DNA of 64,000 nucleotides from an uncultured Flavobacteriales bacterium (GCA_937974275.1 CALJIF010000055.1:23290-87289), one strand, 5' to 3'. Counted from the first letter of the stretch, positions 18,432-55,716 are shown. The notes: a model not told the origin generated them from the letters alone. Translations and numbers: made by a program.

Positions 18432-18458
18432 AGGGCATGAAAAATGCCCTTTTCTTTT
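18432..18458 (+). terminator. intrinsic terminator-like hairpin overlapping the M1 peptidase start codon
   Basis: AGGGCAT-gaaaa-ATGCCCT followed by TTTCTTTT. The ATG at 18437 lies inside the 5' arm. Confidence 0.55.
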
Positions 18459-20997: not shown

Positions 20998-23900
20998 ATG
21001 TCTAAGCGACTTCTTCTCTTCTTTGCCGGCGCGGTTACCTTAACCATGCTGATTGTGCCGTTTATTGCCTCCGACAGCAAATCGGCTCCGGCGGCAACAA
21101 AAATTAATCCTGCTTTTGGTGCGTATGTTTCTGCATACACCTCGGGTATGATTTCCAACGAATCAAAAATTCGAGTTCGATTATCGGAAGATTACACCGG
21201 AGAAATTCAGTACGATAAGCCAACCGCTGATTCCTATTTCGACTTTTCTCCTTCCATCGAAGGCGAAACATTCTGGATCGATGCCCGCACGTTGGAATTC
21301 CGTCCTTCAAAACGCTTGCCTTCCGACCAAGCCTATACGGCGAAGTTTAAGTTATCGAAGCTGATTTCCGACTTACCTGCCGACCTGGAGGTGATGGAAT
21401 TTAATTTCCGCACACTTAAACAAGGCGTAGTAGTTCAAATTGAAGGAACCAAGACAATTGACAAAAAAACATTGCGCTGGCAACAATTGAAAGGTACGTT
21501 GCACACCAATGATGCTGCGGATGACAAAGAAGCTGAAAAGACATTTACTGCCACACAAAATGGAAAAAAGTTACCGGTGCGCTGGACCCATGAATCCAAC
21601 CACACAACACGCTATTTTGTTGTTGACAGTATTGCACGCACCGATGTTGCGGGTGAAATTGTGTTGAACTGGGATGCAAAAGCAATTGGTGGAAGCCAAA
21701 CCGGATCAGTGAAGCAAGCTATTCCTTCCCTTAAAGATTTTAAAGTAACCGGAGTGCGACTGGAGCAAGGTGAACAACAATGTATCATCATTCAGTTTTC
21801 TGATCCATTGGATGAAAAACAAAGTGTAGACGGATTAATCACCCTAAACGGAGATATCGTTCCAATGCGATATACCATCCAGGACAATGATATCAAAGCT
21901 TATCCGTCCGACCATCTTAGCGGTGATTACACGCTGCGTGTCAATAAAGGCATCAAGAACATTTTGAAAACTAAAATGCCTGCAGGATTTTCTACAGGTG
22001 TGAAGTTCGAAGATCTCAAACCGGGAATTCGGTTGGTTGGAACAGGCGTCATTTTGCCCAATACAGATCGCGGTATGTTATTCCCGTTCCAGGCAGTTGG
22101 TTTAAATGCGGTTGATGTACGGATCATCAAAATTTACGAGAACAATATTCCTCAATTCTTGCAAGTGAGTTCGTTGGACGGTTCAAGCGAATTATATCGT
22201 GTCGGTAAAAAAATCATCAAGAAAAAAATAGATTTAAATGTTTCCAACAAAGCAGAACTCAGCAGTTGGGGCACGTACTCGTTAGATCTTTCCGAATTAG
22301 TTAAAACTGAACCCGGAGCTATATACCGCGTTACTTTAAGTTTCAAGCAAGCCTATTCAACGTACGACTGTCCGAAAGATTCCAGCGAAACACCGGTTGC
22401 CATAGAGGAAAATGTAGAAGAGGAAGAAGATCCGGATGGCTACGGTTATTACAGCGATTATTCCGACGACTCGTATTATTGGTGGGATGGTGATCGTGAT
22501 GATCCTTGCGATCCATCCTATTATTACGGAAGAAGTATCAGTAAAAATTTCCTGGCTTCCGACTTAGGATTATTAGCGAAGAAAGGAAATGATGGAGGTA
22601 TGCTCCTAGCTGTAAATCAACTTCAAACTACAACACCAATTGCAGGTGCTCAGTTAGAAATTTACGATTTCCAACATCAACTCATCACAAAATCTGTTTC
22701 CGATGCAGAAGGTTTGGCGAAAGTAAACGTAGGTAAGAAAAAACCGTTTTTATTAATTGCTAAACACGGAACACAACGTGGTTATTTGAAACTGGATGAT
22801 GGCACTTCGCTTTCCTTAGGTGCATTCGATGTTGCCGGCGCAACCGTACAGAAAGGATTGAAAGGATTTATTTACGGAGAACGCGGTGTATGGCGTCCGG
22901 GAGATACATTGTTCCTTGGTTTTATATTGGAGGACAAACAAAAAACCTTACCTGCCACACATCCTGTTACGATGGAATTATATAATCCACGTGGTCAGTT
23001 GGTAGAAAAAATGATTAAAGCGCAAGGTGTAAACGGATTTTATTCGTTTGCGCCTGTAACGGATGCTGAAGCACCAACAGGACGCTGGATTGCAAAAGTT
23101 AAAGTAGGTGGCGCAGTATTTACAAAAGATCTGAAAGTGGAATCCATTATGCCGAACCGCTTAAAGATCATGTTTGAAGTGGGTAAAAACGGCTTAGTTT
23201 CTGCAGCCGATCAAACGAAGTTGACATTACAATCACAGTGGTTACATGGCGCAAAGGCGCGCAATTTGAAGGCTGATGTTAGAGTGAGTTTAGCACAAAC
23301 TACCACAACATTTAAAGGTCATGACAAATTTCAATTTGACGATCCTGCATCCAGCTTCTACAGCGAAGAACAAACCGTATTCGACGGACGATTAGATGAA
23401 AATGGTGTTGCTCAATTTGAAGCCGGTGTGGATGTGAAACAAGCTCCCGGTATGTTAAAAGCTGCATTCAACACACGTGTATTTGAAGAAGGCGGTGCAT
23501 TTAGCGTCGATCGTTTCACGGTAAATTATTCACCGTACAAAAATTACGTAGGTGTGCTTGTGCCGGAAGGAAATTTGTGGGGTGGCATGTTGGAAACAGG
23601 AAAAGATCATCAGATCATCGTCGGTTCAGTGGACGAATACGGCAATAAAACTTCTCGCAGCAACTTACAAGTTAAAGTGTACAAGCTCGACTGGCGTTGG
23701 TGGTGGAGTTCCTCTTACGAAAGTTTGGCGCACTATGTATCGGGGAATTATTACTCGCCTGTATTGGAACAAACCATCAGCACAACAAATGGTCGCGGAT
23801 CATTTAAACTTAAAGTTGAGAACGAAAATTGGGGACGTTATTTAATTCGCGTTACCGATATGGAAAGTGGACACTCTTGCGGTTCCATAAGCTATTTCGA

Positions 23901-26586
23901 CTGGCCGTATTGGGATGGCGCAGGAACAAAAAATCCGGATGCTGCAAGTATTCTGCAATTCACCACAGATAAAACAACGTACAAGCCGGGCGAATCTATT
24001 CAACTTTCAATTCCGTCTCCGGGTCAAGGCCGTGCTTTGATTAGTGTTGAAAGCGGATCACGCATTATCAATTCGTATTGGGTAGAAACACAAACCAAAG
24101 GCACCTTCACACACGCCATTCCTGTTACATCAGAGATGGCACCGAATGTATATGTGAACGTGACGTTGATTCAGCCACACGGTCAGGTAAAGAATGATGC
24201 GCCAATCCGCTTGTTCGGCGTGGTTCCTGTTATTGTAGATGATCCTGCAAGTCACCTTGCACCACAAGTTCAAACTGCATCGGTTTGGAAACCGGAAGAA
24301 CAAGCATCAGTAACGGTAAGTGAAAAAGACGGTAAAGCGATGACATACACTCTTGCCATTGTTGATGAAGGTTTGCTGGATCTCACTCGCTTTAAAACAC
24401 CTGATCCGCACGGTCATTTTTATGCGCGTGAAGCATTGGGTGTAAAAACGTGGGATATGTATGATATGGTGATGGGAGCATATGGTGCCGAAATGAGTAA
24501 AGTACTTGGTATTGGCGGTGACGGCGATGATGGAAACAAAGGCGGACAAAAAGCAAATCGCTTTAAACCGATGGTGAAATTCATGGGGCCGTTTGAATTG
24601 AAAAAAGGAAGCAAACAAACGCACAACTTTATGATGCCGCAGTATGTCGGATCGGTTCGTGTGATGGTCATTGCCGGTCAAGATTTTGCATATGGACACG
24701 TAGACAAAGCTGTGCCTGTGCGTAAGCCGTTGATGTTGTTAGGCACACTGCCACGCGTAGTTGGTCCGGGAGAAACGGTGGACTTACCTGTAAACGTTTT
24801 TGCAATGGAAGCTAAAGTGAAAAACGTACACGTGCAGGTAACCACTAACAACATGTTTACGGTTGAAGGTGGTAATTCTCAAACATTGCAGTTCAATGAA
24901 GTTGGTGACCAAGTGGTGACATTCCGATTGAATGTTTCAAAAGCAGTTGGGTTGGGCAAAGTAAAAATTACCGCAAGCGGTGCAGGTGAAAAAGCGGAGC
25001 ACAGCATAGAGATTGATGTGCGGCACCCCAACGTTGAAGTTTCCGATGCGTATGAAGCAACATTGGAACCGGGCAAATCGTGGGAAATGGATTACACGCC
25101 ATTCGGTTTAACAGGTACGAATTCCGCTCAATTGGAATTCAGCACTGTTCCTCCGTTGAATTTAGGTCAACGTTTGGAATATCTGATTGGTTATCCGCAC
25201 GGATGTTTGGAGCAAACCACGTCGGCTGCATTCCCTCAATTATTCTTGCCTGATCTGGTGAAAATGAGCGAGAACAAAAAGAAGAAAGTTGAATTCAACA
25301 TTCGTGCAGCGATATCACGTTTGCAACGTTTCCAAACTTCTTCGGGTGCGTTTGGTTACTGGCCGGGCGATCAGTATCCTTCCGAATGGGGCAGTAACTA
25401 TGCCGGACATTTCTTACTCGAAGCAGAAGCAAAAGGCTATCATGTTTCTTCGAACGTGTTGGAGAACTGGAAAAAATTCCAACGTGAACGCGCATTAAAT
25501 TACACTCCTCGTTACGATCGTTATTATTACTACAACGACGATTTGATGCAGGCGTATCGTTTATACACACTTGCTCTCGCTAAAGCGCCTGAGGTTGGTG
25601 CGATGAATCGTCTGAAAGAGCAAGATAATTTAAGTACTGCAGCGCGCTGGCGATTAGCTGCGGCGTATCAATTAGCAGGTCAGCCGGAAGTTGCTGCACA
25701 AATGGTGAAAGGTTTGTCAACAGAAATCAAACCTTACAACGAGTTCTCCGGAACATTCGGCAGCTCCGATCGTGACCTTGCCATGATCTTAGAAACGATG
25801 AGTTTAATGGGTGGTTCATATAAAGTTCAGGCTGCAGTTGTTGCGAAGAAAATTTCTGAAACATTGAATCGCAAGAATTATTACATGAATACACAAGCTA
25901 CGGCGTATAGTTTATTGTCCTTGTGTAAATTCTCCGGTGGTGATAAAACATCGAAAGGATTCAGTTGCGATTTCGCCATTAACGGGAAAAAGAATTCCAT
26001 GAAGGAGTCTTTACCGATGGCATCAACGGATATTGAAATTGTAGGAACGAGCCGTGGTAAAGTAAGTGTGAAAAATACCGGCAGTAATGTCTTGTTCGTT
26101 CGTTTGGTATTAAACGGAATCCCCGATGTAGGTAACGAAACTGCCGCAAACAATTTCATGAACATGACGGTGGATTATTCGACGATAACCGGAAAACCAT
26201 TAGATCCGACGCAGATTGTACAGGGAACAGATTTTGTGGCAACAGTAACTGTTACTAATCCGGGAATGCGAGGAGAATATCGTGAAATGGCATTAACACA
26301 AGTATTCCCGTCAGGTTGGGAAATTCGCAACGAAAACATGGAAGCTACTGTTGGCGCTAATGTGAAAGGCAGTACCTACGATTTCCGCGATACCCGTGAT
26401 GATCGTGTTCATACATACTTCTATATTGCACCGAACAAAAGCAAAACATTCAAGGTGTATCTGAACGCAACTTACACCGGTAAGTTTTATTTGCCGGGTC
26501 CATTCTGCGAAGCTATGTACGACAATTCCGTCAATGCCCGTAAAGAAGGTCAATGGGTGCAAGTTGTGCCTGATGTTGTAAATTAA
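20998..26586 (+). CDS. bacterial alpha-2-macroglobulin family protein (thioester-containing protease trap)
   Basis: 1862 aa with a signal peptide and a CxEQ thioester motif (GYPHGCLEQTTSAAFP). The multi-domain MG architecture is typical of YfhM/A2M. Confidence 0.9.
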   Translation: MSKRLLLFFAGAVTLTMLIVPFIASDSKSAPAATKINPAFGAYVSAYTSGMISNESKIRVRLSEDYTGEIQYDKPTADSYFDFSPSIEGETFWIDARTLEFRPSKRLPSDQAYTAKFKLSKLISDLPADLEVMEFNFRTLKQGVVVQIEGTKTIDKKTLRWQQLKGTLHTNDAADDKEAEKTFTATQNGKKLPVRWTHESNHTTRYFVVDSIARTDVAGEIVLNWDAKAIGGSQTGSVKQAIPSLKDFKVTGVRLEQGEQQCIIIQFSDPLDEKQSVDGLITLNGDIVPMRYTIQDNDIKAYPSDHLSGDYTLRVNKGIKNILKTKMPAGFSTGVKFEDLKPGIRLVGTGVILPNTDRGMLFPFQAVGLNAVDVRIIKIYENNIPQFLQVSSLDGSSELYRVGKKIIKKKIDLNVSNKAELSSWGTYSLDLSELVKTEPGAIYRVTLSFKQAYSTYDCPKDSSETPVAIEENVEEEEDPDGYGYYSDYSDDSYYWWDGDRDDPCDPSYYYGRSISKNFLASDLGLLAKKGNDGGMLLAVNQLQTTTPIAGAQLEIYDFQHQLITKSVSDAEGLAKVNVGKKKPFLLIAKHGTQRGYLKLDDGTSLSLGAFDVAGATVQKGLKGFIYGERGVWRPGDTLFLGFILEDKQKTLPATHPVTMELYNPRGQLVEKMIKAQGVNGFYSFAPVTDAEAPTGRWIAKVKVGGAVFTKDLKVESIMPNRLKIMFEVGKNGLVSAADQTKLTLQSQWLHGAKARNLKADVRVSLAQTTTTFKGHDKFQFDDPASSFYSEEQTVFDGRLDENGVAQFEAGVDVKQAPGMLKAAFNTRVFEEGGAFSVDRFTVNYSPYKNYVGVLVPEGNLWGGMLETGKDHQIIVGSVDEYGNKTSRSNLQVKVYKLDWRWWWSSSYESLAHYVSGNYYSPVLEQTISTTNGRGSFKLKVENENWGRYLIRVTDMESGHSCGSISYFDWPYWDGAGTKNPDAASILQFTTDKTTYKPGESIQLSIPSPGQGRALISVESGSRIINSYWVETQTKGTFTHAIPVTSEMAPNVYVNVTLIQPHGQVKNDAPIRLFGVVPVIVDDPASHLAPQVQTASVWKPEEQASVTVSEKDGKAMTYTLAIVDEGLLDLTRFKTPDPHGHFYAREALGVKTWDMYDMVMGAYGAEMSKVLGIGGDGDDGNKGGQKANRFKPMVKFMGPFELKKGSKQTHNFMMPQYVGSVRVMVIAGQDFAYGHVDKAVPVRKPLMLLGTLPRVVGPGETVDLPVNVFAMEAKVKNVHVQVTTNNMFTVEGGNSQTLQFNEVGDQVVTFRLNVSKAVGLGKVKITASGAGEKAEHSIEIDVRHPNVEVSDAYEATLEPGKSWEMDYTPFGLTGTNSAQLEFSTVPPLNLGQRLEYLIGYPHGCLEQTTSAAFPQLFLPDLVKMSENKKKKVEFNIRAAISRLQRFQTSSGAFGYWPGDQYPSEWGSNYAGHFLLEAEAKGYHVSSNVLENWKKFQRERALNYTPRYDRYYYYNDDLMQAYRLYTLALAKAPEVGAMNRLKEQDNLSTAARWRLAAAYQLAGQPEVAAQMVKGLSTEIKPYNEFSGTFGSSDRDLAMILETMSLMGGSYKVQAAVVAKKISETLNRKNYYMNTQATAYSLLSLCKFSGGDKTSKGFSCDFAINGKKNSMKESLPMASTDIEIVGTSRGKVSVKNTGSNVLFVRLVLNGIPDVGNETAANNFMNMTVDYSTITGKPLDPTQIVQGTDFVATVTVTNPGMRGEYREMALTQVFPSGWEIRNENMEATVGANVKGSTYDFRDTRDDRVHTYFYIAPNKSKTFKVYLNATYTGKFYLPGPFCEAMYDNSVNARKEGQWVQVVPDVVN

Positions 26587-27513: not shown

Positions 27514-28476
27514 TCAGCACAACTGCTCGATTATTTTCTCTACGCTTATTCCTTCCGCTTCTGCTTTGTAATTGCGCACGATTCGATGACGCAAAATCGG
27601 CTTTACAACAGCACGAACATCTTCCATATCAGGAGAATACTTTCCGCTTACAACGGCATGACATTTAGCACCAAGAATTAAGTATTGAGATGCACGCGGA
27701 CCAGCTCCCCAAGCAACATACTTGTTCACTTCAGGATCTGCGTTGGGTGTATTCGGACGTGTTTTAGCAACAATGCGCACCGCGTATTCCATAACATTAT
27801 CAGGAACCGGAACACGACGAACGAGATCTTGCAAATACATGATTTCATCTGTGCTCAACACCTTATTCACGGTAACATTGCGCTCAGAGGTTGTGTTCTT
27901 CACCACTTGTAATTCTTCCTCAAACGTCGGATAATCGAGCGATACGTTAAACATGAAGCGGTCGAGTTGAGCTTCAGGTAAAGCGTATGTTCCCTCCTGC
28001 TCAATCGGGTTTTGAGTAGCCAAGACGAAAAACGGTTGATCTAATTTATAACGCTTCCCTGCAGCCGTAACCGCGCGTTCCTGCATCGCTTCTAAAAGTG
28101 CCGATTGTGTTTTCGGAGGCGTACGGTTAATCTCATCGGCGAGAATGATATTGGCGAACAAAGGTCCTTTAATAAACTTAAACTGTCTTGTTTCATCCAA
28201 TATTTCAGTGCCGATAATATCAGATGGCATAAGATCGGGCGTAAACTGAATACGGTTATAGCTCAATCCTAACGATTGAGCAACAGTATTTACCAATAAT
28301 GTTTTAGCCAAACCGGGAACGCCAACCAGCAAACAATGACCGTTACTGAATATGGAAATCAAGACGTCTTTTACCACATCTTCCTGCCCGACAATAATCT
28401 TGCGAATTTCTGTATTAAGCAGATTATACTTCTCGCGGAAATAATTTACCGCTTCAACATCATTCTTAAACTGCAT
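27514..28476 (-). CDS. MoxR-family AAA+ ATPase
   Basis: Walker A GVPGLAKT and Walker B IILADEINR. The MoxR-like core is 320 aa. Confidence 0.9.
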   Translation of the reverse strand: MQFKNDVEAVNYFREKYNLLNTEIRKIIVGQEDVVKDVLISIFSNGHCLLVGVPGLAKTLLVNTVAQSLGLSYNRIQFTPDLMPSDIIGTEILDETRQFKFIKGPLFANIILADEINRTPPKTQSALLEAMQERAVTAAGKRYKLDQPFFVLATQNPIEQEGTYALPEAQLDRFMFNVSLDYPTFEEELQVVKNTTSERNVTVNKVLSTDEIMYLQDLVRRVPVPDNVMEYAVRIVAKTRPNTPNADPEVNKYVAWGAGPRASQYLILGAKCHAVVSGKYSPDMEDVRAVVKPILRHRIVRNYKAEAEGISVEKIIEQLC

Positions 28477-28494
28477 GTGGCAAAAATTAAATTC

Positions 28495-29871
28495 TTACTT
28501 CAGGTAATTCAGCCAAGGATATTTGAACTGATAATGCCTGTGATCCTCGGATATACGAATATACGTATTCGGTAATTTCTTCTTCACCCATTCATTGATG
28601 GCTTTTTCCTGCTTTGCCTGCAATGCCATATCCTGAATTAACTGGTAATCATCTTTCAAATTCGCTTTATGGGGCTCGGAACGTGATTTCAAGTATAACA
28701 CACGATAAGCTTGTTTTCCATCACGCGTAGCCATGGCATGAGGTGCAGAATAGCTTCCCGGCTTCATCTGGCTCACCAATACCGGAAACTCCGGATTCGG
28801 ATCCAAATCACCTAACATGTTTACTTCAATTTTTGTAGTGCCGGTATATGGATTGATAATCAAACCGCACGAATACTTGGAATCCGCGTCATCAGAAAAC
28901 TTCGCTGCAGCTTCACAAAAAGTCATTGAGTCAAGACGAACGAACTTCATAATTGAATCGAGTCGCACTTTGGCCAACTTTACATCTTCTGTTGTTACCG
29001 GAACTTCATATAAAATGTGTCGAATATCGACCTCTTCGCCCCTTCGTGCCAATAATTGTACAAAGTGAAAACCGTATTCCGTTTCGAAAACTTCCGATAT
29101 TTCATTTTCCTTCATGCTAAAGCATACGGCATCAAACGCCGGCACAAACGTTCCGCGACGTATGTTTTCGTATTTACCGCAATTGAACTGAGATCCGGGA
29201 TCTTTTGAATAGGTAGAAGCTGCAACACAGAAGTCTAATTTTCCGGTGACCACACGCTGACGAATACTTTCCAGTTCCATGCGCGCATATTCCTTCAATT
29301 CGGGGTTGATTGTCGGTTTAATCACAATTTGTCCAACCTCAACCTCCGCATTAATAAAAGGCAAACTATCTGCGGGAATAGAAGCGTAATATGCTTTAAT
29401 ATCAGCAGGAGTAACCGTGATATTCTGTGTAATCTGTCCTTCCATTTTTTGAATCATGATGAGTTCTTTAACACGATCATGTAATTCAAAACGGAATGCA
29501 TCGGTTGTTTTACCGTAGAACTCTTCGAACTTTTTTTGCGATCCGAATTGCATGATGAAATAACGCAAGCGACGATCAATCTCCCCGTTAATCTCTGCCT
29601 CAGACACCGTGATACTATCCTTTACAGCCTGAGCCAACATGAGTTTCTTCACCAACAGCGATTCAAGGATGACTCCGCGAAGCGAATCGTTTAACGGCAA
29701 ACCTTGTTCTTCATAATCCGCGTAAGCATTTTGAATATCAGATTCCTTAATGGTCTGATTTCCTACAACGGCAACAACACGATCCACCATTACAGGTTGA
29801 TCCTGAGCAGAAGCATCCGTGAAAGTCAACACCCACAAGGCGCTGAAGAGTAGCAATAAGTTAACCCGCAT
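28495..29871 (-). CDS. SurA-like periplasmic chaperone / PpiC-type peptidyl-prolyl isomerase
   Basis: Start set at MRVNLLLLFSALWVLTFTDASAQ (signal peptide). Has an N-terminal SurA chaperone region and PpiC-type rotamase domains (…YGFHFVQLL…). Confidence 0.75.
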   Translation of the reverse strand: MRVNLLLLFSALWVLTFTDASAQDQPVMVDRVVAVVGNQTIKESDIQNAYADYEEQGLPLNDSLRGVILESLLVKKLMLAQAVKDSITVSEAEINGEIDRRLRYFIMQFGSQKKFEEFYGKTTDAFRFELHDRVKELIMIQKMEGQITQNITVTPADIKAYYASIPADSLPFINAEVEVGQIVIKPTINPELKEYARMELESIRQRVVTGKLDFCVAASTYSKDPGSQFNCGKYENIRRGTFVPAFDAVCFSMKENEISEVFETEYGFHFVQLLARRGEEVDIRHILYEVPVTTEDVKLAKVRLDSIMKFVRLDSMTFCEAAAKFSDDADSKYSCGLIINPYTGTTKIEVNMLGDLDPNPEFPVLVSQMKPGSYSAPHAMATRDGKQAYRVLYLKSRSEPHKANLKDDYQLIQDMALQAKQEKAINEWVKKKLPNTYIRISEDHRHYQFKYPWLNYLK

Positions 29872-30745
29872 TGATCTTAATTTCTTTTTTATTAATAGCG
29901 TCATTATAAATATCATTCCGCATACGGTCGATAAGATCGCGTTTGCGTTGATTGATGATAATGCTGCGAATATTTTCCTTTTCAAATCCTATAGGACTTT
30001 TGCTGTCCCGAATCATAAAACCTCGAATATCCACGAAGTACAAATGCGTCGTATCGGAAACTTCTACATATCGGTTATTCTGCAGAAACAATTCCTTGTT
30101 ATAGGTTGGAATCGGCACTTCCTTCAACAAATCATCAAACAACAACCAGGACTGATCATCCAGAAAGTAGTTCGCTGCGAATTGCATACAATATCCTTCC
30201 AGTTCTTTTTTATCCTGAGGTTTTGTTGAACGTATCCAGTTTTTCAATTTGGCGACATTGGGTGCTTTTTTATCCACCTTAACGTATACAACCTTGATGA
30301 TGTTGTTCTTCAACGTGAAATCATCCGGATGTTCGTTGTAGTACTTCTCAATTTCAGTTTCACTCACGATGGTATCCAATTGCTGCTGCACCAGCTTCTG
30401 TTCATAGTTGTAAATGATCAGACTGTTGCGGTATTTACGTAATTGCTCCTCTACATTTTTTTCATCAGTACCCAAATTTTGTTCTGCCTGATGAACCAAC
30501 AACATTTCACGCACCCAACTGTTAATGTATGTCTGCGCAAAACGAGCGCTATCGTCTTTGGACATATCTTCAGTCATGGCCGACTTCAGATCGGATTCGT
30601 ACAGCTTGTAATTATAAACTTCCGCTAATACTTTTCCGCCCGTTTCATTTTGTTTGTTCTCTGTTCTATCGCATGAATAACACACAACTAACAGTACAGA
30701 GACGAACAAAAACAGAATACGTTGCCGCATGAGCAGAAAGTACAA
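29861..30745 (-). CDS. SurA N-terminal domain-like periplasmic protein (signal peptide)
   Basis: 294-aa ORF between two PPIase genes with a hydrophobic N-terminus (MRQRILFLFVSVLLVV). There is no rotamase motif, which suggests the chaperone domain only. Confidence 0.5.
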   Translation of the reverse strand: MYFLLMRQRILFLFVSVLLVVCYSCDRTENKQNETGGKVLAEVYNYKLYESDLKSAMTEDMSKDDSARFAQTYINSWVREMLLVHQAEQNLGTDEKNVEEQLRKYRNSLIIYNYEQKLVQQQLDTIVSETEIEKYYNEHPDDFTLKNNIIKVVYVKVDKKAPNVAKLKNWIRSTKPQDKKELEGYCMQFAANYFLDDQSWLLFDDLLKEVPIPTYNKELFLQNNRYVEVSDTTHLYFVDIRGFMIRDSKSPIGFEKENIRSIIINQRKRDLIDRMRNDIYNDAINKKEIKINAG

Positions 30746-30750
30746 GACTA

Positions 30751-32943
30751 CTATTTTACAAGCTTCAGAACATCACGATTAACTTGAACAGGATATTTCG
30801 CTTTTAACGATTCAACCCACTCACGCTCCAAACGATTTTGATAATCTGTTGTGATGACACCACGAGCTTCCTGAAGCGTTTTCGGCTTAGGCTGCTGAAC
30901 TTCGTACGTATGCACAAATGTTACTCGATTATCTTTCATTTGATCCGCTGATGTGCCTGCCTTCCAGTTGCCGTCAACAGCAGCATTTTCGCCCTTTGTC
31001 CACAACTTACGTTCAGCTTGTACATTTAACTGAGAGTCTTTATTTACCTCAGCCAAAATCTCCTTTTCAGTTTTGCCTTTGCTGATCATCTTGCGAACCA
31101 TTTTCGCAGTCTTGGCATCTTTACAAGAATACACAACAGCATCGGCACGCTCCGGCCACAAATAATTGTTCTTATTCCCTTCATAGAAAGTCCGAAGTCC
31201 TACCGTATCTTTTACTGCTTTCGACCACACACGCTGATCCATTAAGTCGAACAACAAAATTCCATCACGATATTCCTGCATCAGATATCCGAATTCTGCA
31301 TACTTCTTTTCCAATTTGCTATCCTCCAAAGTAATGCACATCTCGTTAACGTATGCCGTGTATGAATCATCCACCAGTTTCTTAAGCTCTGTTTTGGCAC
31401 GACGCACCTGCTGAGATTCCATCCACACCGCAAAGTCCATCTGCGTGTAGTTTTTACCACCCAGCGTAAACAACACTTTGTTCATTCCCTTCGCTTTTTC
31501 AGCAGCAACCCACTTGCCCATAAAAATTGTGCTGTCCACAACTTTGTACATCTCAGCTTTTACTTTAGGGTATTCTACAAAAGCATTTTCCTTTTTCACT
31601 GCTTCTATCAATGCTGTTTTGCCTTGCTGTCCGCGTTGATCACGATTACAACGTGCTTTAATATCATTCTTGGATTGTTCGAAAGTGGGCACCATTCTGC
31701 GATCCAATCGCTTCACGATGTGCCATCCCCAATCCGTTTTAACCGGCTCGGAATAATCACCGTTGTTTTGTAAACCAAAAGCTGCCTTTTCAAATGGAGC
31801 AGGCATTTTGTACAAACCAAACCATGGCATTTCACCTCCTTTTGCAGCTGATGGTTTGTCATCGGAAAACTGACGCGCCAATGTTGCGAAGTCTTCTCCT
31901 GCCTTAACCTTACCGTAAATTTCATCAATCTTATTTTTTGCATTGATGGAATCCTGAGTTGCCATTCCCATTGGAGCTTTAACCATGATGTGCGCCACCA
32001 AAACTTCTCCTTGCGCAGGACGACGATCATGTACATACACCAAGTGATATCCGTAACGCGTGCGTGCAGGACCGCCGATTTTACCGACCGGAGTATTATA
32101 GCACAACGTTTCGAACTGATACACCATAGAGAAAGCTGTAAAATATCCTAAATCACCACGATTCTGACGTGCAGACTCATCTTCAGACGCCATAAATGCC
32201 ACATCATCAAACGGCGCAGGTTTGCCACGATACTTGCGCTCCAATTGTTTCAACGGATTCACCAAATTATACACGCGCAAAGTATCAGAAGGCGAAGATT
32301 CTTTTGAGATTTTATATTTCGCCTTAAGCTTTGCTTCATAGTCGGCAATTTGCTTGGATACCGGCTTTCCTGCCAGCAAACCTTGAATGATATTGATTTT
32401 AGTGTAGGCGATATCCGTGTCTTTCGGAAGCGAATTTTCATCCAAACGAATCAGGATATGACTCGCACGAATATCTTCTTTCATACGATTGTATGCCTCG
32501 AGATATAAACTGTCATTCACCTTCTTGTCTGTCAAATATGGTTGCGCCACCTGACGGCGATAGCCAGCCAATTCATTCTTAAAAGCTGCAGAAGTATCCA
32601 TTTTCAGATCCTGAGCCTCTTTCACTTTCATCTTAAACGTCGTGAAGAGATCGAGATAGTTATTTAAAGCAGTAGTATCACCTGCCTGATCCTTGTTATT
32701 CTTTTTGTACACGTACATGAACTCACCCAAAGTAACCTTGGTGTCTCCAATAGTCATTAAGACCAAATTGGCCGTATCAACTCCGGCAACTTTAGGTTGC
32801 GGGCTTCCGGGAGCCGGCATCTGTTTCTGAGGAGCAGCCTTTTGCGAAGTAGTTTGTGTGGGTCTGGAGGTGTCTTTCTGCTGAGCAAATCCGTAAGTGC
32901 ACCCAACAGCGGCAACAACAAGAGCTAAAATCGACTTTTTCAT
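30751..32943 (-). CDS. large PpiC-type peptidyl-prolyl cis-trans isomerase (SurA/PpiD-like)
   Basis: Start at MKKSILALVVAAVGCTYGFAQQ. PpiC rotamase segments (SHILIRL…, GYHLVYVHDRR…) sit between long chaperone-like regions. Confidence 0.75.
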   Translation of the reverse strand: MKKSILALVVAAVGCTYGFAQQKDTSRPTQTTSQKAAPQKQMPAPGSPQPKVAGVDTANLVLMTIGDTKVTLGEFMYVYKKNNKDQAGDTTALNNYLDLFTTFKMKVKEAQDLKMDTSAAFKNELAGYRRQVAQPYLTDKKVNDSLYLEAYNRMKEDIRASHILIRLDENSLPKDTDIAYTKINIIQGLLAGKPVSKQIADYEAKLKAKYKISKESSPSDTLRVYNLVNPLKQLERKYRGKPAPFDDVAFMASEDESARQNRGDLGYFTAFSMVYQFETLCYNTPVGKIGGPARTRYGYHLVYVHDRRPAQGEVLVAHIMVKAPMGMATQDSINAKNKIDEIYGKVKAGEDFATLARQFSDDKPSAAKGGEMPWFGLYKMPAPFEKAAFGLQNNGDYSEPVKTDWGWHIVKRLDRRMVPTFEQSKNDIKARCNRDQRGQQGKTALIEAVKKENAFVEYPKVKAEMYKVVDSTIFMGKWVAAEKAKGMNKVLFTLGGKNYTQMDFAVWMESQQVRRAKTELKKLVDDSYTAYVNEMCITLEDSKLEKKYAEFGYLMQEYRDGILLFDLMDQRVWSKAVKDTVGLRTFYEGNKNNYLWPERADAVVYSCKDAKTAKMVRKMISKGKTEKEILAEVNKDSQLNVQAERKLWTKGENAAVDGNWKAGTSADQMKDNRVTFVHTYEVQQPKPKTLQEARGVITTDYQNRLEREWVESLKAKYPVQVNRDVLKLVK

Positions 32944-33034
32944 AAATATGTACTGAGATTTTTTGAGAAGAGCAAAAGTACTGATTATGAGAGAAACAGC
33001 CAACCATTAAAGTGGGCTAATCCAAACGAATTTA

Positions 33035-35062: not shown

Positions 35063-35100
35063 TTTCAAAAGACCCTGACTGAACGGGGTCTTTTATTTTT
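35063..35100. terminator. bidirectional intrinsic terminator shared by convergent genes
   Basis: AAAAGACCC-tgactgaacg-GGGTCTTTT, with T-runs on both strands (…tgtttc AAAA on the left, TTTTATTTTT on the right). Confidence 0.7.
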
Positions 35101-35800
35101 GGTGCTTGGATTCACCACCCATCAATGCATACTGAATCAGGTTGGCACCCATACGTAACGCTTTCAGTCGTGCATCGGGCGAATCATTATGAACTTCAGG
35201 ACTTTCCCATCCATCGCCCAAATCACATTCGAAATCGTAAAAACAAACTAAACGTCCTTGCCACACCAGTCCAAATCCTTGAGGTGGTTTTTTGTCGTGC
35301 TCGTGTACTTTCGGTAAACCATTCGGGAAGTCGTATTTCTGGTGATATATTTTGTGTGAGAATGGCAGTTCAATAAAATCCAGCTCGGGAAATACCTTCT
35401 TCATTTGCGGACGGATAAATTTATCCATGCCGTAGTTATCACTGATGTGAAGAAATCCTCCACCAATTAAATAATTGCGCAGGTTGGTAGCTTCCTGATT
35501 ACTTAAAATAATATTACCGTGTCCGGTTAAATGAATAAACGGATAGTTAAATAATTCGCTACTGCCAACTTCGACTATAGCCTGCTCCGGATTGATTTTT
35601 GTTCCTAAATTTTCATTACAAAACTTAATCAAGTTGGGGAGTGATGTTTCGAGATTGGAATACCAGTCGCCACCACCGTTGTATTTAACCAGTCCCAGTT
35701 GACAGCTGTATGGCGGAGCAGGAGAGCGAAATCCGACCAATAGCAGTCCCACTAACAAGATGGTGATGGCATGTAGCTTATGTTTTGTTGGAATAATCAT
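35093..35800 (-). CDS. DUF4159-like secreted protein
   Basis: Signal peptide plus GGGDWY…FIHLTGHGN…GGFLHISDNYGMD. Memory-based match to DUF4159. The start abuts the stop of the upstream sensor gene. Confidence 0.5.
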   Translation of the reverse strand: MIIPTKHKLHAITILLVGLLLVGFRSPAPPYSCQLGLVKYNGGGDWYSNLETSLPNLIKFCNENLGTKINPEQAIVEVGSSELFNYPFIHLTGHGNIILSNQEATNLRNYLIGGGFLHISDNYGMDKFIRPQMKKVFPELDFIELPFSHKIYHQKYDFPNGLPKVHEHDKKPPQGFGLVWQGRLVCFYDFECDLGDGWESPEVHNDSPDARLKALRMGANLIQYALMGGESKHQK

Positions 35801-38800
35801 TTAAGAAATTTTTATACCAATTATACAAATATCGTCGGTTTGAGGTGCATTCTTTTGCCATTCACGCAATCGACGTAACAGTTCCTCTTTCTGCTCAGCC
35901 AAAGGCAAATGATGAATATCCAGCAAAATTTCCCGGAAAACACGCTGAGACATTTTTCGATCGGAATCTCCACCAAATTGATCCGCGTAACCATCGGAGA
36001 ACATATACAACACATCACCGCTCTGCAAATCACTTTCCTGATTGGTAAACGGACGGAATTTATTATCGAAATAGCTTCCGATAGAGAATCGGTTTCCTTT
36101 GGATTGTATCAGCATTCCGTCCCGAACTACGTACAACGGATTGATAGCACCCGCAAATTGAACAACGTTTGCCCCATCCTCGAAAACGCATAAGGCTACG
36201 TCCATTCCGTCGCGCAATTCACCTGCTCCTTTGTACTGATTTAACGTATGTTGAATGCCAATATTTAAATAATCCAAAATTGCCGCAGGTCGAATTAAAC
36301 CACGTTCATGAATGGCCTGATTTAATAAGTTGTGCCCCATCAAACTCAATAAAGAACCCGGCACTCCATGTCCTGTTGAATCGACAACAGCGAGATAAGT
36401 GTATTTATCACGACGTTCCACCCAGTAAAAATCACCACTCAATACATCTTTAGGTTGGTATAATACAAAGATGTCGCCAAAGCGTTCCTGAAGATATTCT
36501 TCCGGTGGTAGAATTGCATTTTGAATTCTACGTGCGTATAAAATTGAAGATTGAATATCTTCATTCTTCTGTTCAATGATGTTCAGATAGTTGATTTGCG
36601 CCACAGCAGCAGCCATTGCATCAGCTACTTCTCGAACCATATCTACCATTTCATCGGTAATTCCATTAACAATGCCGCTACCGAAATTAATCGAACCTAA
36701 CAACTTATTCTGGGAGAACAACGGCATAACCAGATATGAGTTAATACCGACTGAAATATTCTCTTCATCGGACATTGACTTAACAGCTTTACCGGTTAAA
36801 TTACCTTCAATAACGTAGTTGTTTTTTAACAAAGCGGGTAAGCTCCCAAATGCATCATACGGTACTTCATGCGTTGAACTATTGTATTGTGCATCCTTCA
36901 ATACAAATTGTATACGAATGGTTTTTGTGTTTTCATCAAGTAAAGCCAACGAAGCTCTTTTTAAATCCGGCAAACGTTGCACTAATGCCCCCAGCACATT
37001 GGTAGCAATTTCCTGAATGGTGTGCGAATGCAATAATTGTTGCTTCGCCATATTCAGGGTTTCCAATCGCACAGAATATGCGTTCAACTGCATTTGGAAT
37101 CGTTTCTTTTCCGTGGTGTCCGTAAATATTTCAATCTGTTTTAAAATACCGCCTCGCTCATCAACGATAGGTGTGTTACTTACGTCAATCCAAATTTCGT
37201 GACCGTCTTTATGATAAACTAAAAACTCTTCATGGAAACCTTCAGCACTACTCGATAAGTTACGCACCTTACGAATCGCATCTCTATCCGTGCGTTCACC
37301 TGCCATAACATCGCCGGGAAGTCGACCTTTTACTTCCTGTAATTCGAATCCGGTGATTCGCGTAAATCCTTCGTTGACCCATTCAATTAGTCCATCGGGG
37401 TCGCATATCAAAACGCCATTAATAGTTTCTGAAGCAACAAGCGATAACTTCTCTAACTCGGCTTCATAATTCTTTTTCTCGGTAATATCTCGCGCAATTG
37501 CTTGAAACCCTGAAATACCGCCGGGTTTTGAATCATCCAATAAAAGGCGCACTGTTTGTCCTATCCAAATCTTCTGCCCTTCTGCCCCAATCATGACAAA
37601 CTCCAAGTACGTATTCACCTGTTTACGTTCAAACTGCTTCTGGTAATGTCCGATTACTTCCTTCTTCCAATCGGGATGAATAATTTCAGAAAAATGTATC
37701 CCGATTAAATCCTTCATTTTGTAACCGGAAATCTTTGTTGCCACCTCATTCAAAAAAGTAAAACGTCCTTTATAATCAGTGGTATAAATGATATCAGTTG
37801 CCGCTTCAACAATGTGTTGGTAACGCGCTTCTATTTCATAACGATCCGTAACATCCTGGCCAATACCAACTTTAATACCTTCAATAATTTCTGTATCCAC
37901 CCACTGAATGTATTTTTTAGTTCCATCTCTGGCGGTAATAGTAGCGACGTAGGTTGGAGATGTTGTAGTTGTTTGTAATATTTTATCCAACATCCGCTTG
38001 TTCTCTTCATCGTCTTTAGTGCGAATTTTCCACCAACCATCTCCCAATAATTCATCTTCACGATAACCCAATATCTTTCGAAAACTGCGACTGGCAAAAA
38101 TGATCTTCCCCGCTTTGTCAGCTGCGATAATCAAACTTTGAGAATTGTTTATGGTACTGTCCGCAAAAATCAAACGGTTGAACATGTTCGATCGAGTGCT
38201 GACACTTAAAAACGCAATTACCAGATCAACTAATACCCCCAGCAACAACAAATACTTGTTATAAGCAGTATTGGATGTGGCTAATATCATGAGCGCAAAC
38301 GTCAACAACAATACAAGTGCAGAAAAAACAACTGCAGATTTATTGTTGTCCAAAATAAATCCGGCTCCGCTTAAGACAACCATCAGCGTAATCACAAATA
38401 CCGGATCAAGATTATTGATATGACATAAATAAAACGTGTGCAATACAATTGCTCCATAGCCCAAATGCGCTATGATTCGGACGATTTTATTCAACGATGA
38501 ATTTGAGTAGGACAGAACACCGATTACAATCATGACTGCTCCAATCGAAATTTGAATTGGGTGTTGATAGTCAATGTGATCAGCAAAAATGGAACAGATC
38601 AAACCTGATAGCGGATAAACAGCTCCTCCCAGCATCAGCATTACACGCCCTACAGTTCTTTGATAATTGTAATAGGTAATGTGCTCGCGGATAAAATCGG
38701 CACGCATACGCTGGTAGTAAAAGAGCAGGAATACGGATACTATTCCGACAACGACAATTACAATCAGGAAAAACCACCAAGTGGACCAGAACGGAGGCTG

Positions 38801-41017
38801 AATAGTAAAACGATACTCAATTGGATTACTGATAATTTTATGCGTATTGAGCGCCCGCACCTGCAATACATAATCTCCCGATGGCAAATTCGTTAATGCA
38901 ATGAGCGCGCTACTCCCGATGGACAGCCAATTAGTGTCGCGTCCTACTAAACGGTACTGATATTCGAGTTCAACACCTGCACCGAATTCAATACCGGTAA
39001 CTTTAAACGTAAGGTTGTTTTTATTCCAAGGTAACTTTAAGTTGAGCGGTAGTCCGGATTTGGATAGTGAATCAGCATAGTCACTCCAATTGGTCTCCGC
39101 GTTGTTTAATGTAATCGCTTTGAATTGAACGTTGGGCACAATGGCAAATCGTGCGCTTTTTGCGGGATGATAAATAATAACACCATCAGAACTTCCTATC
39201 CAAACCACGCCTTCCGTATCAATGAAAAGTGCGCCGGGTGAAAAATTTGACGTGCCAATTCCATCTTTATAATAAAAGTGACGGATGTACTGTGTATCAT
39301 TCGCAAGTGTGATTTCATCTAAGCCTAAAACAGTAAGCACATAAAAACCTTTTGCCCCATTTCTCGCAACGCCTTCTGTGTAGTTACTCCCTAATCCTTC
39401 TGATTTGTCAATCAGCTGTCCCTTATGATTGACTCTATTGTACCTCCATAAACCTCGGCTTTTTGTAGAGAAATAAATAAACTTTTCATCGCCATCTACA
39501 TCATAAATTGGCTCAAGTGGAAATCCTTTTTTGGTAATGGTATGCGGACGCACAGCGTTTCCATTCTCCATTTTGAGCAGCCCCTTGTCAGTACCAAGCC
39601 AGATCGTGCCTTCATTATCTTCATATAACGACCAAATCGGATTGCGTTGTAAAATATTTCCCGTGTTTACCTGTTCAATTTTATTGTTGTTGAATCGGAA
39701 TAAACCGTTGCTGACTGTACCTATCCATACAGATCCATCGTTGGTGTACAGCAAACTGATTATTTCACCTAATTCGGTTTCAGGTCCCGGCTGATGAACT
39801 TTTACTTTATCGTCTCGTATTTCAACAAGCGAACCATCCATGGCGCCGGCATAGATCGTGGAACCGTTCGCGCATATCGAGCTCATTCGAGGATAAGCGA
39901 TACCTTCTTTTTCACCATACACTTTTAAATCGACACCGTCATACATGACAACACCTCGTAATGTTGCCATCCAAATATTGCCGGATGCATCTTGTGTTAC
40001 GGAACGCACATCGTTACTCGGCAAACCATCCTGAACCGTAAGTTTTGTAAAAGCATCACCGTAATACATGATAAGCCCCGCATTGAAGCTTCCCATCCAG
40101 ATATCGCCTCTATTATCAGATGAAATGGTGAGAATCACATCATCAAACAATCCATTGTGTTTACCAAAATGTTTGAAGACACCATTCGTATAACTTAAAA
40201 CACCTTCACCCCATGTGCCAAACCACACAGTGCCGGACAAATCACGATGAGCACAAGTGATGTAATTTACTTTTGCATATTCCGGAAGTTGAAGTTGTGT
40301 AATCAAATTACCGTCGAAACTATAGATACCATCACCTGAAGTACCAATTAAAATTTCACCGCCGTCAAGCTCTACTAATCCCCGGATACGGGCAGCAGCA
40401 AGTTTGTCTTGTTCCGGAAATGTACGATTCGTGAACTTATTCAAAGAATAGTCTATTTGGAACAAGCCGTTGCGATCGGTTCCCAGCCATAACCTGTTTT
40501 TAGAATCGAGCAGCATAGTGCGCACTGCAAGATTGTCCGCAGGAGTACCCGTATTTACTTTAACAACGGTATTACCAACAATTTTATATAATCCATTATC
40601 GGTTGCCAGCAAGATCATCTTGGATGCTGTTGCAAACGAATACACTTTTGTAAAACGATTTGTGCCTTGTTGAATTAACGGCTTAAACACCCCTCCGGTA
40701 TACAACGCTACGCCTTTGTCCGTGGCAAAGTATAATCCTTCAGGGGCTTCTGTAATTGCTGTAACTTCATTACCGGGCAAGCCGGATGACATATCGAATA
40801 CATCAAACTCCTTTCCATCAAAACGACACAAACCACCCTCAGTGCCGATCCAAACAAATCCTGACTTATCCTGATAAATACTCAACACCTGAGAGTGCGG
40901 TAATCCGGTGCTTACGTTGTATTGAAGAAAATTATATTGCTGTGCAAAAACGGGACAGACAACACTAAGAAGTGCTATCACAACTGCATAAAGAATCGCC
41001 CGATTTCGTAATATCAT
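35801..41017 (-). CDS. multi-sensor signalling protein: periplasmic two-component-regulator propeller (Reg_prop) + Y_Y_Y domain, multi-TM block, PAS/GAF domains, C-terminal PP2C/SpoIIE serine phosphatase
   Basis: 1738 aa. Signal peptide, then repeated ~45-aa propeller blades, a Y_Y_Y segment ending at WWFFLIVIVVVGIV, 6-7 further TM helices, three PAS-like blocks, and a PP2C motif set (DFYWV…VVDSTGHGV…DD(I)C). Confidence 0.85.
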   Translation of the reverse strand: MILRNRAILYAVVIALLSVVCPVFAQQYNFLQYNVSTGLPHSQVLSIYQDKSGFVWIGTEGGLCRFDGKEFDVFDMSSGLPGNEVTAITEAPEGLYFATDKGVALYTGGVFKPLIQQGTNRFTKVYSFATASKMILLATDNGLYKIVGNTVVKVNTGTPADNLAVRTMLLDSKNRLWLGTDRNGLFQIDYSLNKFTNRTFPEQDKLAAARIRGLVELDGGEILIGTSGDGIYSFDGNLITQLQLPEYAKVNYITCAHRDLSGTVWFGTWGEGVLSYTNGVFKHFGKHNGLFDDVILTISSDNRGDIWMGSFNAGLIMYYGDAFTKLTVQDGLPSNDVRSVTQDASGNIWMATLRGVVMYDGVDLKVYGEKEGIAYPRMSSICANGSTIYAGAMDGSLVEIRDDKVKVHQPGPETELGEIISLLYTNDGSVWIGTVSNGLFRFNNNKIEQVNTGNILQRNPIWSLYEDNEGTIWLGTDKGLLKMENGNAVRPHTITKKGFPLEPIYDVDGDEKFIYFSTKSRGLWRYNRVNHKGQLIDKSEGLGSNYTEGVARNGAKGFYVLTVLGLDEITLANDTQYIRHFYYKDGIGTSNFSPGALFIDTEGVVWIGSSDGVIIYHPAKSARFAIVPNVQFKAITLNNAETNWSDYADSLSKSGLPLNLKLPWNKNNLTFKVTGIEFGAGVELEYQYRLVGRDTNWLSIGSSALIALTNLPSGDYVLQVRALNTHKIISNPIEYRFTIQPPFWSTWWFFLIVIVVVGIVSVFLLFYYQRMRADFIREHITYYNYQRTVGRVMLMLGGAVYPLSGLICSIFADHIDYQHPIQISIGAVMIVIGVLSYSNSSLNKIVRIIAHLGYGAIVLHTFYLCHINNLDPVFVITLMVVLSGAGFILDNNKSAVVFSALVLLLTFALMILATSNTAYNKYLLLLGVLVDLVIAFLSVSTRSNMFNRLIFADSTINNSQSLIIAADKAGKIIFASRSFRKILGYREDELLGDGWWKIRTKDDEENKRMLDKILQTTTTSPTYVATITARDGTKKYIQWVDTEIIEGIKVGIGQDVTDRYEIEARYQHIVEAATDIIYTTDYKGRFTFLNEVATKISGYKMKDLIGIHFSEIIHPDWKKEVIGHYQKQFERKQVNTYLEFVMIGAEGQKIWIGQTVRLLLDDSKPGGISGFQAIARDITEKKNYEAELEKLSLVASETINGVLICDPDGLIEWVNEGFTRITGFELQEVKGRLPGDVMAGERTDRDAIRKVRNLSSSAEGFHEEFLVYHKDGHEIWIDVSNTPIVDERGGILKQIEIFTDTTEKKRFQMQLNAYSVRLETLNMAKQQLLHSHTIQEIATNVLGALVQRLPDLKRASLALLDENTKTIRIQFVLKDAQYNSSTHEVPYDAFGSLPALLKNNYVIEGNLTGKAVKSMSDEENISVGINSYLVMPLFSQNKLLGSINFGSGIVNGITDEMVDMVREVADAMAAAVAQINYLNIIEQKNEDIQSSILYARRIQNAILPPEEYLQERFGDIFVLYQPKDVLSGDFYWVERRDKYTYLAVVDSTGHGVPGSLLSLMGHNLLNQAIHERGLIRPAAILDYLNIGIQHTLNQYKGAGELRDGMDVALCVFEDGANVVQFAGAINPLYVVRDGMLIQSKGNRFSIGSYFDNKFRPFTNQESDLQSGDVLYMFSDGYADQFGGDSDRKMSQRVFREILLDIHHLPLAEQKEELLRRLREWQKNAPQTDDICIIGIKIS

Positions 41018-47145: not shown

Positions 47146-47829
47146 TCATTTTCCGGGAAACTTCAACGGATGCTTTTCATTATACAAGCGCACATAATAA
47201 AACATCATCTCCTTGCGCTTGCGTTTTTTCAGTGCGTTAAACTCTGCTAACAAAACAGGATCTCCTTGAATTAAATACTGCACATTGTTGACATTCGCAT
47301 CATAAATCCGACCGGTTTTGGTATCCAAAAAATACTGCTGCAAAGTCTGAACGGGAGTGCCCATTGCAGGTCCGCCCATTCCTGCCGGTCCTGTAGTCAT
47401 GTAAGTTGTAACATACGCCGTAAACTGCGCGATATTTCCCATCAGCATAATTCTACTGAAATCGTTGTTACATGAAACATATACTGCGCGATTTTCGCAA
47501 AACCCCCAGGCGCGTAACGGATTCATTTCAATGACAACACTGCCCGTATCCTTGTAGCGAAGCGTTTTGGATGTCATTTGTGTTTTAATGAAATCAATAG
47601 CATTTGTATCTCCAACACCTACAATTTTGGAGCGCGGCACAGGTGTGTTGGTTCGAAATTGCTCGTAGGTTAAATAAATCCCATCCTTTAAGGGAAACGT
47701 TGATGAATAGACAATGGAATCCGTTTGTGCTTTAGCACTATCTGTAGCGAACAAAATACCCGCAGCAAACGTTAAGGAAAATACCCAATGAGCATTTAGA
47801 ATTGAATTGAATTGTTGATCTTTAAGCAT
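47146..47829 (-). CDS. secreted hypothetical protein
   Basis: ORF with a candidate signal peptide (…HWVFSLTFAAGILFATDSAKAQ). The start is uncertain because the longer ORF would overlap the divergent S8 gene. Confidence 0.4.
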   Translation of the reverse strand: MLKDQQFNSILNAHWVFSLTFAAGILFATDSAKAQTDSIVYSSTFPLKDGIYLTYEQFRTNTPVPRSKIVGVGDTNAIDFIKTQMTSKTLRYKDTGSVVIEMNPLRAWGFCENRAVYVSCNNDFSRIMLMGNIAQFTAYVTTYMTTGPAGMGGPAMGTPVQTLQQYFLDTKTGRIYDANVNNVQYLIQGDPVLLAEFNALKKRKRKEMMFYYVRLYNEKHPLKFPGK

Positions 47830-47848
47830 GGCAATAAAACGGGCTACT

Positions 47849-55698: not shown

Positions 55699-55716
55699 TT
55701 AAACACTCTACCGATC

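Follow-up and report, generated by a model that had tools for sequence, protein, structure and literature searches.

MoxR ATPases are widespread, clients are known for few of them, and current thinking about how they work mostly rests on partner proteins with VWA or DUF58 domains. What, then, does a MoxR gene do at the end of a row of genes for exported chaperones, with no such partner beside it? The question is raised by a stretch of 64,000 nucleotides (nt) from an uncultured Flavobacteriales bacterium (GCA_937974275.1, CALJIF010000055.1:23290-87289; this whole stretch is hereafter the window), in which four consecutive minus-strand genes encode a SurA-like protein of the PpiC type, a shorter SurA-N-like protein (here Mid), SurA, and a MoxR AAA+ ATPase. 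The answer that we favor, tentatively and as plausible rather than probable, is that this is a conserved surA operon of Bacteroidota ending in a distinct, co-transcribed, and partnerless MoxR, and that the ATPase acts in the same pathway as the chaperones, from the cytoplasmic side. The four genes, with product lengths in amino acids (aa), are:

30751..32943, minus strand: SurA-like PpiC-type gene, 730 aa from ATG
29861..30730, minus strand: SurA-N-like gene (Mid), 289 aa from ATG, or 294 aa if the TTG at 30745 is the start
28495..29871, minus strand: SurA gene, 458 aa
27514..28476, minus strand: MoxR AAA+ ATPase gene, 320 aa, last in the cluster

An initial annotation, made from the sequence alone, had already listed these four minus-strand genes and their identities, and both agree with the table of open reading frames (ORFs), with the sequence, and with Pfam. 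Near-identical public contigs, whose genes were called independently, yield identical products of 289, 458, and 320 aa. The annotated spacings stood in part: the stop of Mid and the start of SurA do overlap by 11 nt, and 18 nt do separate the SurA stop from the MoxR start, but the 5 nt given for the gap between the PpiC-type gene and Mid apply only if the TTG is the start, the gap being 20 nt with the ATG. The stop codon of MoxR (27516-27514) adjoins that of a convergent 269-aa ORF ending at 27513, and the stop-to-stop junction that had been described is thus seen in the sequence. At the other end, upstream of the PpiC-type gene, the window has a divergent 286-aa gene in the place where other loci have guaB.

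The initial annotation had proposed to look for the same synteny across the phylum, and the arrangement is not unique to the window genome. One genome per GTDB species was scanned, which gave more than 563 relatives, of which the 80 best-scoring loci (69-99% identity) were retained together with 10 kb on either side, the closest being a freshwater Bacteroidia metagenome-assembled genome (MAG) of the Lake Mendota series (99%). Neighbors were counted by tblastn with the window proteins, and 78 of the 80 loci have enough upstream DNA. In 71 of these 78 species a SurA homologue lies directly upstream of MoxR on the same strand (91%, a figure limited to this best-scoring clade of at least 69% identity). 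The full PpiC-Mid-SurA-MoxR order is present in 49 species, three loci lack only Mid, and a PpiC homologue is found upstream in 52 of the 71 SurA-MoxR loci, while about 10 loci, including genomes labeled Pedobacter and Chitinophagales, have the SurA-MoxR pair alone. Because this pair persists where the other genes vary, it can be taken as the core of the arrangement. The record titles name Flavobacteriales, Bacteroidales, Marinilabiliales, Chitinophagales, and Sphingobacteriales. Between the SurA stop and the MoxR start the median distance is 19 nt; 44 of 67 loci have no more than 30 nt there, and several have overlaps of 4-5 nt. By comparison, control genes of the window (hyp269, hyp286, hyp155, A2M, and DUF4159) were found in only 4-9 of the searched loci, with 5-9 for the flanking hyp269, hyp286, and A2M, and the genes downstream of MoxR vary freely between species. 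The adjacency of SurA and MoxR is more than chance. Compared with the window proteins, MoxR has a median identity of 72% and each chaperone one of about 40%.

Two loci of the scan have unusual genes at or beside MoxR. One MAG (L011, 7260-9998) has a 912-aa gene with fn3 and CHU_C domains, the latter a type IX secretion system (T9SS) C-terminal signal, between SurA and MoxR, ending 2 nt from MoxR. In another (L050, 9995-12184) the MoxR ORF extends over 729 aa into an AAA_14 domain, which may reflect read-through or a frameshift, unless the gene is fused to that of a neighboring ATPase.

A candidate Bacteroidota-type -7 promoter motif is present at the head of the cluster:

32973..32980, minus strand: TACTTTTG, a match to the consensus TAnnTTTG, about 30 nt 5' of the first ATG

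It is the sole minus-strand match to TAnnTTTG in 27514-33000. Among related loci, a match occurs within 120 nt upstream of the PpiC start in 11 of 45 and of the SurA start in four of nine clusters that begin with SurA; for MoxR starts the count is five of 74 (two of 71 by a second count), which is background, since 6% of random windows contain one. No terminator-like sites were found in the intergenic gaps or after MoxR. Taken together, the spacing, the overlap, and the distribution of the motif are consistent with a single predicted PpiC-Mid-SurA-MoxR transcript. A scan for sigma-70 promoters and terminators was uninformative, because its counts, including weak terminator-like matches inside coding sequence, equaled those of shuffled controls. 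A search for RNA elements found no Rfam family between 25000 and 37000 and no tRNA anywhere in the window. Across the window TAnnTTTG is strongly depleted (28 matches, 63 expected), and many of the matches lie just 5' of gene starts (2331, 16741, 20965, 26686, 33035, and 32973). In the closest relatives outside the window's species (L004-L008, 81-83% MoxR identity) the spacer between SurA and MoxR is 154-205 nt long and does not contain the motif.

The last gene of the cluster encodes a clear member of the MoxR family. Its product matches Pfam AAA_3 (2.6e-63; score 212, cutoff 27 bits) and AAA_lid_2 (3.5e-13), and aligns end to end with PDB 2r44, which is CHU_0153 (6.4e-83, about 50% identity). 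The Walker A motif is GVPGLAKT (52-59) and the Walker B motif, read by eye, ILADE (111-115); sensor 1 is N156 (TQNP, 154-157), the arginine finger R173 (DRF, 172-174), and sensor 2 R261 (GAGPRA, 257-262). Since the AAA+ catalytic motifs are complete and neither a signal peptide nor a transmembrane segment was found, the protein is, as far as its sequence tells, an active-looking cytoplasmic ATPase. In an alignment of 70 orthologues, 137 of the 320 positions are at least 97% conserved. As for membership in the conflict system that combines bpMoxR with VWA and beta-propeller proteins, the bpMoxR match (6e-11) is far below that to AAA_3, and the window has no VWA gene. A part in anti-phage defense was rejected likewise, as PADLOC gave marginal matches only (2e-5 or weaker).

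In a neighbor-joining tree, all window-type MoxRs, including those of the seven species in which the gene is away from SurA, are monophyletic in 100 of 100 bootstraps; the MoxRs from the Bat operons of Bacteroides, Phocaeicola, Cetobacterium, and Leptospira fall on the other branch, which they share with the CHU_0153 type. Within the window-type clade, identity between species is 69-83%; the Bat MoxR of Bacteroides (B. finegoldii) has 47% identity with the window protein and 55% with the CHU_0153 type. By these measures the window-type MoxR is a separate and slowly evolving paralogue. Published work shows that Flavobacteriales have a separate Bat operon with a MoxR of its own, and in the flavobacterium Riemerella moxR is the first gene of that operon (PMC11834572). 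Considering this and the separate clade, Bacteroidota probably carry the window-type MoxR in addition to the Bat one. No second MoxR paralogue was found in the fetched loci.

The Bat MoxRs (BatI of B. fragilis and MoxR of Riemerella anatipestifer) come from the same phylum and share with the window protein the AAA_3 and AAA_lid_2 domains, the length, and the intact motifs. They head operons of the order MoxR-DUF58-BatD-VWA-VWA-TPR-BatD-TPR, whereas the window MoxR ends a surA operon and has no DUF58 or VWA gene within 10 kb. It therefore lacks the features that define Bat/MRP, namely, DUF58/VWA neighbors, first position in the operon, and clade. CHU_0153 of Cytophaga hutchinsonii, the sole solved MRP-like MoxR that was matched, is similar over the full length and belongs to a type without DUF58/VWA neighbors, but this type groups with the Bat-type MoxRs, and its conserved neighbor is a small DMT_6 membrane protein instead of SurA. 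It was thus rejected as an orthologue of the window MoxR, its clade and context being different at about 50% identity. Because the CHU_0153 type too has no partner nearby, partnerless MoxRs recur in the phylum. The CHU_0153-type gene follows that for DMT_6 in Cytophagales and Chitinophagaceae (e.g., L083, 3025-4525; L085, 9620-10993).

That no VWA or DUF58 gene neighbors the cluster had been noted from the start, and the observation extends to all 64 kb of the window, where Pfam detected a DUF58, VWA, or BatA domain in none of the substantial ORFs. Canonical loci of Bacteroides finegoldii, Leptospira, Cetobacterium, and Rhizobium served as positive controls. The first has the order MoxR-DUF58-BatD-VWA-VWA-TPR-BatD-TPR, Leptospira and Cetobacterium have equivalent Bat-type operons, and Rhizobium has MoxR-DUF58-[BatA_N...DUF4159]. 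When DUF58, BatA, BatB, and BatD sequences from four phyla were used as tblastn queries against the window and the fetched loci (1.58 Mb), only the control loci were matched, and this across phyla; in more than 80 loci, no DUF58, VWA, or BatD was found by tblastn within ±10 kb of a SurA-type MoxR. We also considered DUF58/VWA genes adjoining MoxR in other species, but 10 neighbors picked by size and strand and 10 further flanking ORFs, an extended MoxR ORF among the latter, had no such domain by Pfam, and the families were unrelated ones: PBP, permease, TrxR-like, Usp, GAPDH, adenylosuccinate lyase, FabH, T9SS cargo, FGase, rhomboid, and HtpG.

These results bear on the reading that the protein is a canonical MoxR working in trans, its VWA/DUF58 adaptor (the Bat proteins or an orphan VWA protein) being encoded elsewhere, so that the surA operon would set its expression and nothing else. 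In the closest partnered MoxR loci that were inspected (those of Bacteroides, Leptospira, Cetobacterium, and Rhizobium), DUF58 with VWA or DUF4159 lies directly downstream, which speaks for this reading. However, Bat operons have their own MoxR, 47% identical and of the other clade (PMC11834572), the flanks of the SurA-type loci and the window are devoid of candidate partners, and the nearest other clade, the CHU_0153 type, likewise has no partner nearby. We consider a partner in trans unlikely.

A different link to the membrane could be provided by a protein encoded in the window itself, the stand-alone DUF4159 protein (35093-35800), which would act as a membrane-anchored adaptor connecting the ATPase to the envelope. 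In its favor, the MoxR-DUF58 operon of Rhizobium includes a fusion of DUF4159 with the N-terminal membrane domain of BatA; the gene is 6.6 kb from the cluster in the window, a regional position kept in L009, L092, and L093; its identity of 70-80% makes it about as conserved as MoxR; and neither DUF4159 nor a window-type MoxR was found among the PLSDB contigs of gut Bacteroidales, in which the SurA cluster and the Bat operon are present, although this co-absence rests on incomplete genomes. On the other hand, tblastn placed DUF4159 within 10 kb of MoxR in only four of 82 loci, plus two more, of the same family-level lineage; the context is unrelated in L094, and the nearest long proteins have no VWA/BatA fusion. 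Such a coupling is hence quite improbable. As a fused MoxR partner in close relatives DUF4159 was rejected, because the 150 best representatives are mostly stand-alone proteins, the three long ones being without VWA/BatA and one of these three being fused to an S8 peptidase; the link was seen in distant operons of the Rhizobium type only. The only literature found on DUF4159 was the Pfam database paper.

The DUF4159 gene is on the minus strand (Pfam 5.9e-70), its product has an N-terminal hydrophobic segment, and it directly follows a gene for a 1738-aa sensor-phosphatase with Y_Y_Y, PAS, GAF, and SpoIIE domains (35801-41017, minus strand). In the window's own lineage, to which this regional synteny is limited, it is 4-9 kb from the SurA-MoxR cluster (L009, L092, and L093), but it is elsewhere in L094. 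A Bacteroidota-like DUF4159 (57% identity to the window protein) is also present on the actinobacterial plasmid pCRULAC1 of Corynebacterium crudilactis (L099, 9989-11176), where it adjoins a dihydrofolate reductase gene in an IS26/ISVsa3 multi-resistance region.

Which pathway MoxR would share depends on what the other three genes encode. The 730-aa protein has a signal peptide, a Q/P-rich linker, a SurA-N-like region, and two parvulin (PpiC) domains, which Pfam Rotamase matches in two stretches (1.7e-43), followed by a C-terminal extension of about 300 aa without any family match. A profile of the family (25 homologues) aligns with residues 150-384 of E. coli SurA, the P1 and P2 domains (1.7e-36). 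The N-terminus reads MKKSILALVVAAVGCTYGFA followed directly by QQ, and Gln21, the first residue after the leader, is invariant in the 25 homologues. In Bacteroidota a Gln marks the type I signal-peptidase site (the Q-rule; PMC10653852). By this rule the invariant Gln21 predicts that the signal is cleaved by type I signal peptidase and leaves no anchor of the PpiD kind. PpiD of E. coli, which associates with YfgM and SecYEG, has an N-terminal transmembrane anchor and one inactive parvulin domain, and acts early in the periplasmic folding pathway. The 730-aa protein, like PpiD, combines a SurA-N-like region with parvulin and a long C-terminal region; unlike PpiD, it has two parvulin domains, matching P1 and P2 of SurA, and its signal is predicted to be cleaved, with Gln at +1.

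Mid has a SurA/PEB4-type N-terminal chaperone domain and no recognizable active parvulin domain. Its N-terminal half matches the N-domain of the SurA family (hhalign probability 86%, E 4.7e-6), its profile matches the N-domain of PDB 3rfw (Cbf2/PEB4; 2.5e-6), and a match to NCBIfam EpsD (3.5e-8) is under the family cutoff. Because a Cys at position 20, after a hydrophobic leader, is invariant in 30 homologues, Mid is a predicted lipoprotein. The 458-aa protein matches Pfam Rotamase_3 in two stretches (2.7e-24), SurA_N_3 (6.2e-7; 29.8 bits, cutoff 27.2), PDB 8hm4 over 29-453 (5.9e-79), and E. coli SurA over residues 25-283 (about 3e-19); a nearly invariant Gln23 follows its hydrophobic leader. 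On sequence grounds it is a SurA orthologue, with 34% identity to the protein of the syntenic SurA cluster of Bacteroides finegoldii that occupies the position of BT_3848, and by homology it would deliver outer-membrane proteins to the barrel assembly machinery (BAM). In B. thetaiotaomicron, BT_3848/SurA is reported to co-purify with BamA (PMC12578637). The export of all three proteins, as initially annotated, is borne out by leaders that end at invariant or nearly invariant residues (Gln21, Cys20, and Gln23). Literature searches for PG0415 and 8HM3/8HM4 returned nothing relevant.

On the reading that we favor, MoxR would be an active, cytoplasmic, hexameric remodeling factor produced in step with SurA by co-transcription. 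It may keep envelope-destined precursors, such as outer-membrane proteins and T9SS cargo, competent for export. Alternatively, it may assemble a factor that is exported or resides in the inner membrane, or make such a factor active. The periplasmic chaperones, which MoxR itself would not touch, would receive the product. In Paracoccus, the methanol dehydrogenase of the periplasm requires MoxR to be active. The cytoplasmic MoxR1 of M. tuberculosis is described as serving RipA, a substrate of the twin-arginine translocation pathway (PMC4810496). In both cases, as proposed here, a cytoplasmic MoxR is needed for the export or activation of an extracytoplasmic protein, although the phyla and the clients are other ones. 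We know of no operon link between MoxR and SurA-type chaperones in M. tuberculosis or Paracoccus, nor, to our knowledge, has anything comparable to MoxR1 and RipA been tested in Bacteroidota.

In the initial annotation the four genes were read as a module for envelope protein folding or quality control; the gene identities, the export, the missing VWA/DUF58 neighbor, and the conserved synteny are supported, while the module as a functional unit is putative. Several observations weigh against placing MoxR in the pathway of the chaperones. Since MoxR stays in the cytoplasm and the chaperones leave it, they could not come into contact without a membrane adaptor, and none that spans the membrane and joins them was identified. 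The 91% adjacency, as said, is a property of the best-scoring clade, and even there seven of the 78 species have MoxR elsewhere, away from SurA. In 29 of 46 loci, belonging to many orders, guaB is directly upstream of the cluster on the same strand (e.g., L017, 4258-5709; L040, 4060-5526); since it encodes IMP dehydrogenase, of purine biosynthesis, and is syntenic yet unrelated, adjacency is no proof of shared function. Moreover, Bacteroides finegoldii, Phocaeicola, Parabacteroides, and Prevotella have the order guaB-PpiC-Mid-SurA-OstA-like-hypothetical-mutL, without MoxR. The gut and oral loci are:

L095-L098: Bacteroides finegoldii, Parabacteroides distasonis, Prevotella sp., and Phocaeicola massiliensis, corresponding to BT_3845-3849 of B. 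thetaiotaomicron

In the proteomics tables of a BAM study in B. thetaiotaomicron, BT_3846, BT_3847, and BT_3848/SurA are listed as peptidyl-prolyl isomerases and BT_3849 as an OstA-N-domain protein, and MoxR is not named in the supplementary proteomics tables examined (PMC12578637). BT_3849 has elsewhere been called LptD (PMC10861873); that it could be the MoxR of this species was ruled out, as it is the OstA-N-domain protein. The PLSDB contigs of these gut species, whose genomes are incomplete in that collection, contain no MoxR of the window type (at least 60% identity). Five of the PLSDB "plasmids" (OY725888, OY725920, OY725757, OY726008, and OY726026, from the TSDC17.2-1.1 gut isolates) carry ribosomal protein genes, ftsY, guaB, and mutL, and are seemingly chromosomal contigs. 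Since the slot of MoxR is here taken by an OstA-like gene, of an envelope-biogenesis type, the operon does have an envelope theme, which counts in favor of our reading. The succession of SurA and an OstA-like (LptD/LptA-type) gene recalls the lptD-surA linkage of E. coli.

The main rival reading is that MoxR is a passenger of the operon. MoxR and surA would then both be housekeeping genes, expressed constitutively or in step with growth, the clients of MoxR would be unrelated cytoplasmic complexes, and the adjacency would reflect the inertia of operons. The retention of guaB next to the cluster, the gut and oral Bacteroidales that keep the chaperone genes without MoxR, and the seven species with MoxR in unrelated contexts (e.g., next to FGase or FabH genes) all suit this explanation. 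So does the lptD-surA-pdxA-rsmA-apaG-apaH operon of E. coli, which mixes unrelated cytoplasmic functions with surA and, with pdxA, rsmA, and apaGH as the companions of the chaperone gene, also tells against our reading. It resembles the Bacteroidota cluster in that surA shares its transcript with genes that act in the cytoplasm in other pathways, and its link to lipopolysaccharide transport reappears in gut Bacteroidales; it differs in having no MoxR and other passengers, and Bacteroidota add two SurA-like paralogues upstream. Furthermore, proteins of a Francisella MoxR operon interact with the pyruvate and oxoglutarate dehydrogenases (cited in PMC11834572). What speaks against mere co-regulation is that the adjacency persists across orders while all other flanks change, that the spacing is operon-tight with occasional overlaps, and that MoxR is always in the slot right after SurA, even where PpiC and Mid are missing. 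That MoxR is only carried along is a real possibility, though we would stop short of calling it probable. Some contexts of the relocated MoxR genes are, in turn, hints in favor of our reading: two of these genes come immediately after one of the rhomboid family (L056, 9365-9916; L065, 9312-9926), and a third is 455 nt downstream of htpG (L076, 7656-9545).

Full-text literature searches turned up no account of a Bacteroidota operon that combines MoxR with SurA or a PPIase, and the arrangement is apparently an undescribed, conserved variant of the genomic context of MoxR. It concerns a partnerless clade whose members are among the most conserved proteins of the neighborhood and are linked through their operon with SurA, the principal chaperone of outer-membrane proteins, in a phylum whose envelope machinery (BAM, Lol, and T9SS) is now being found to be unlike the E. 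coli model. Gut Bacteroidales, with the OstA-like gene in the slot, and the seven species with a relocated MoxR are natural groups for comparison. A more specific form of the shared-pathway reading, in which the SurA-linked MoxR would be a Bacteroidota-specific cytoplasmic ATPase for envelope biogenesis (a SecB-like holdase/unfoldase or an assembly factor), perhaps coupled to the membrane via DUF4159, is doubtful; if true, it would mean a new route by which cytoplasmic ATP provides energy to the chaperone pathway of the periplasm, and MoxR ATPases would have a partner logic of a new kind. Should co-regulation be all that joins the two genes, the cluster would still define a group of MoxR orthologues that is not to be annotated as the MoxR of Bat operons.

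Apart from the cluster, the window is rich in T9SS-related genes, which include those for cargo with Por_Secre_tail/CHU_C domains, among them an M1 peptidase, an S8 subtilase, and a protein with SprB repeats, as well as a PorP/SprF gene, and it also encodes a bacterial alpha-2-macroglobulin of 1862 aa. Jointly, these genes occupy 57-2288, 18437-20866, 47828-49966, 51295-56757, and 20998-26586.

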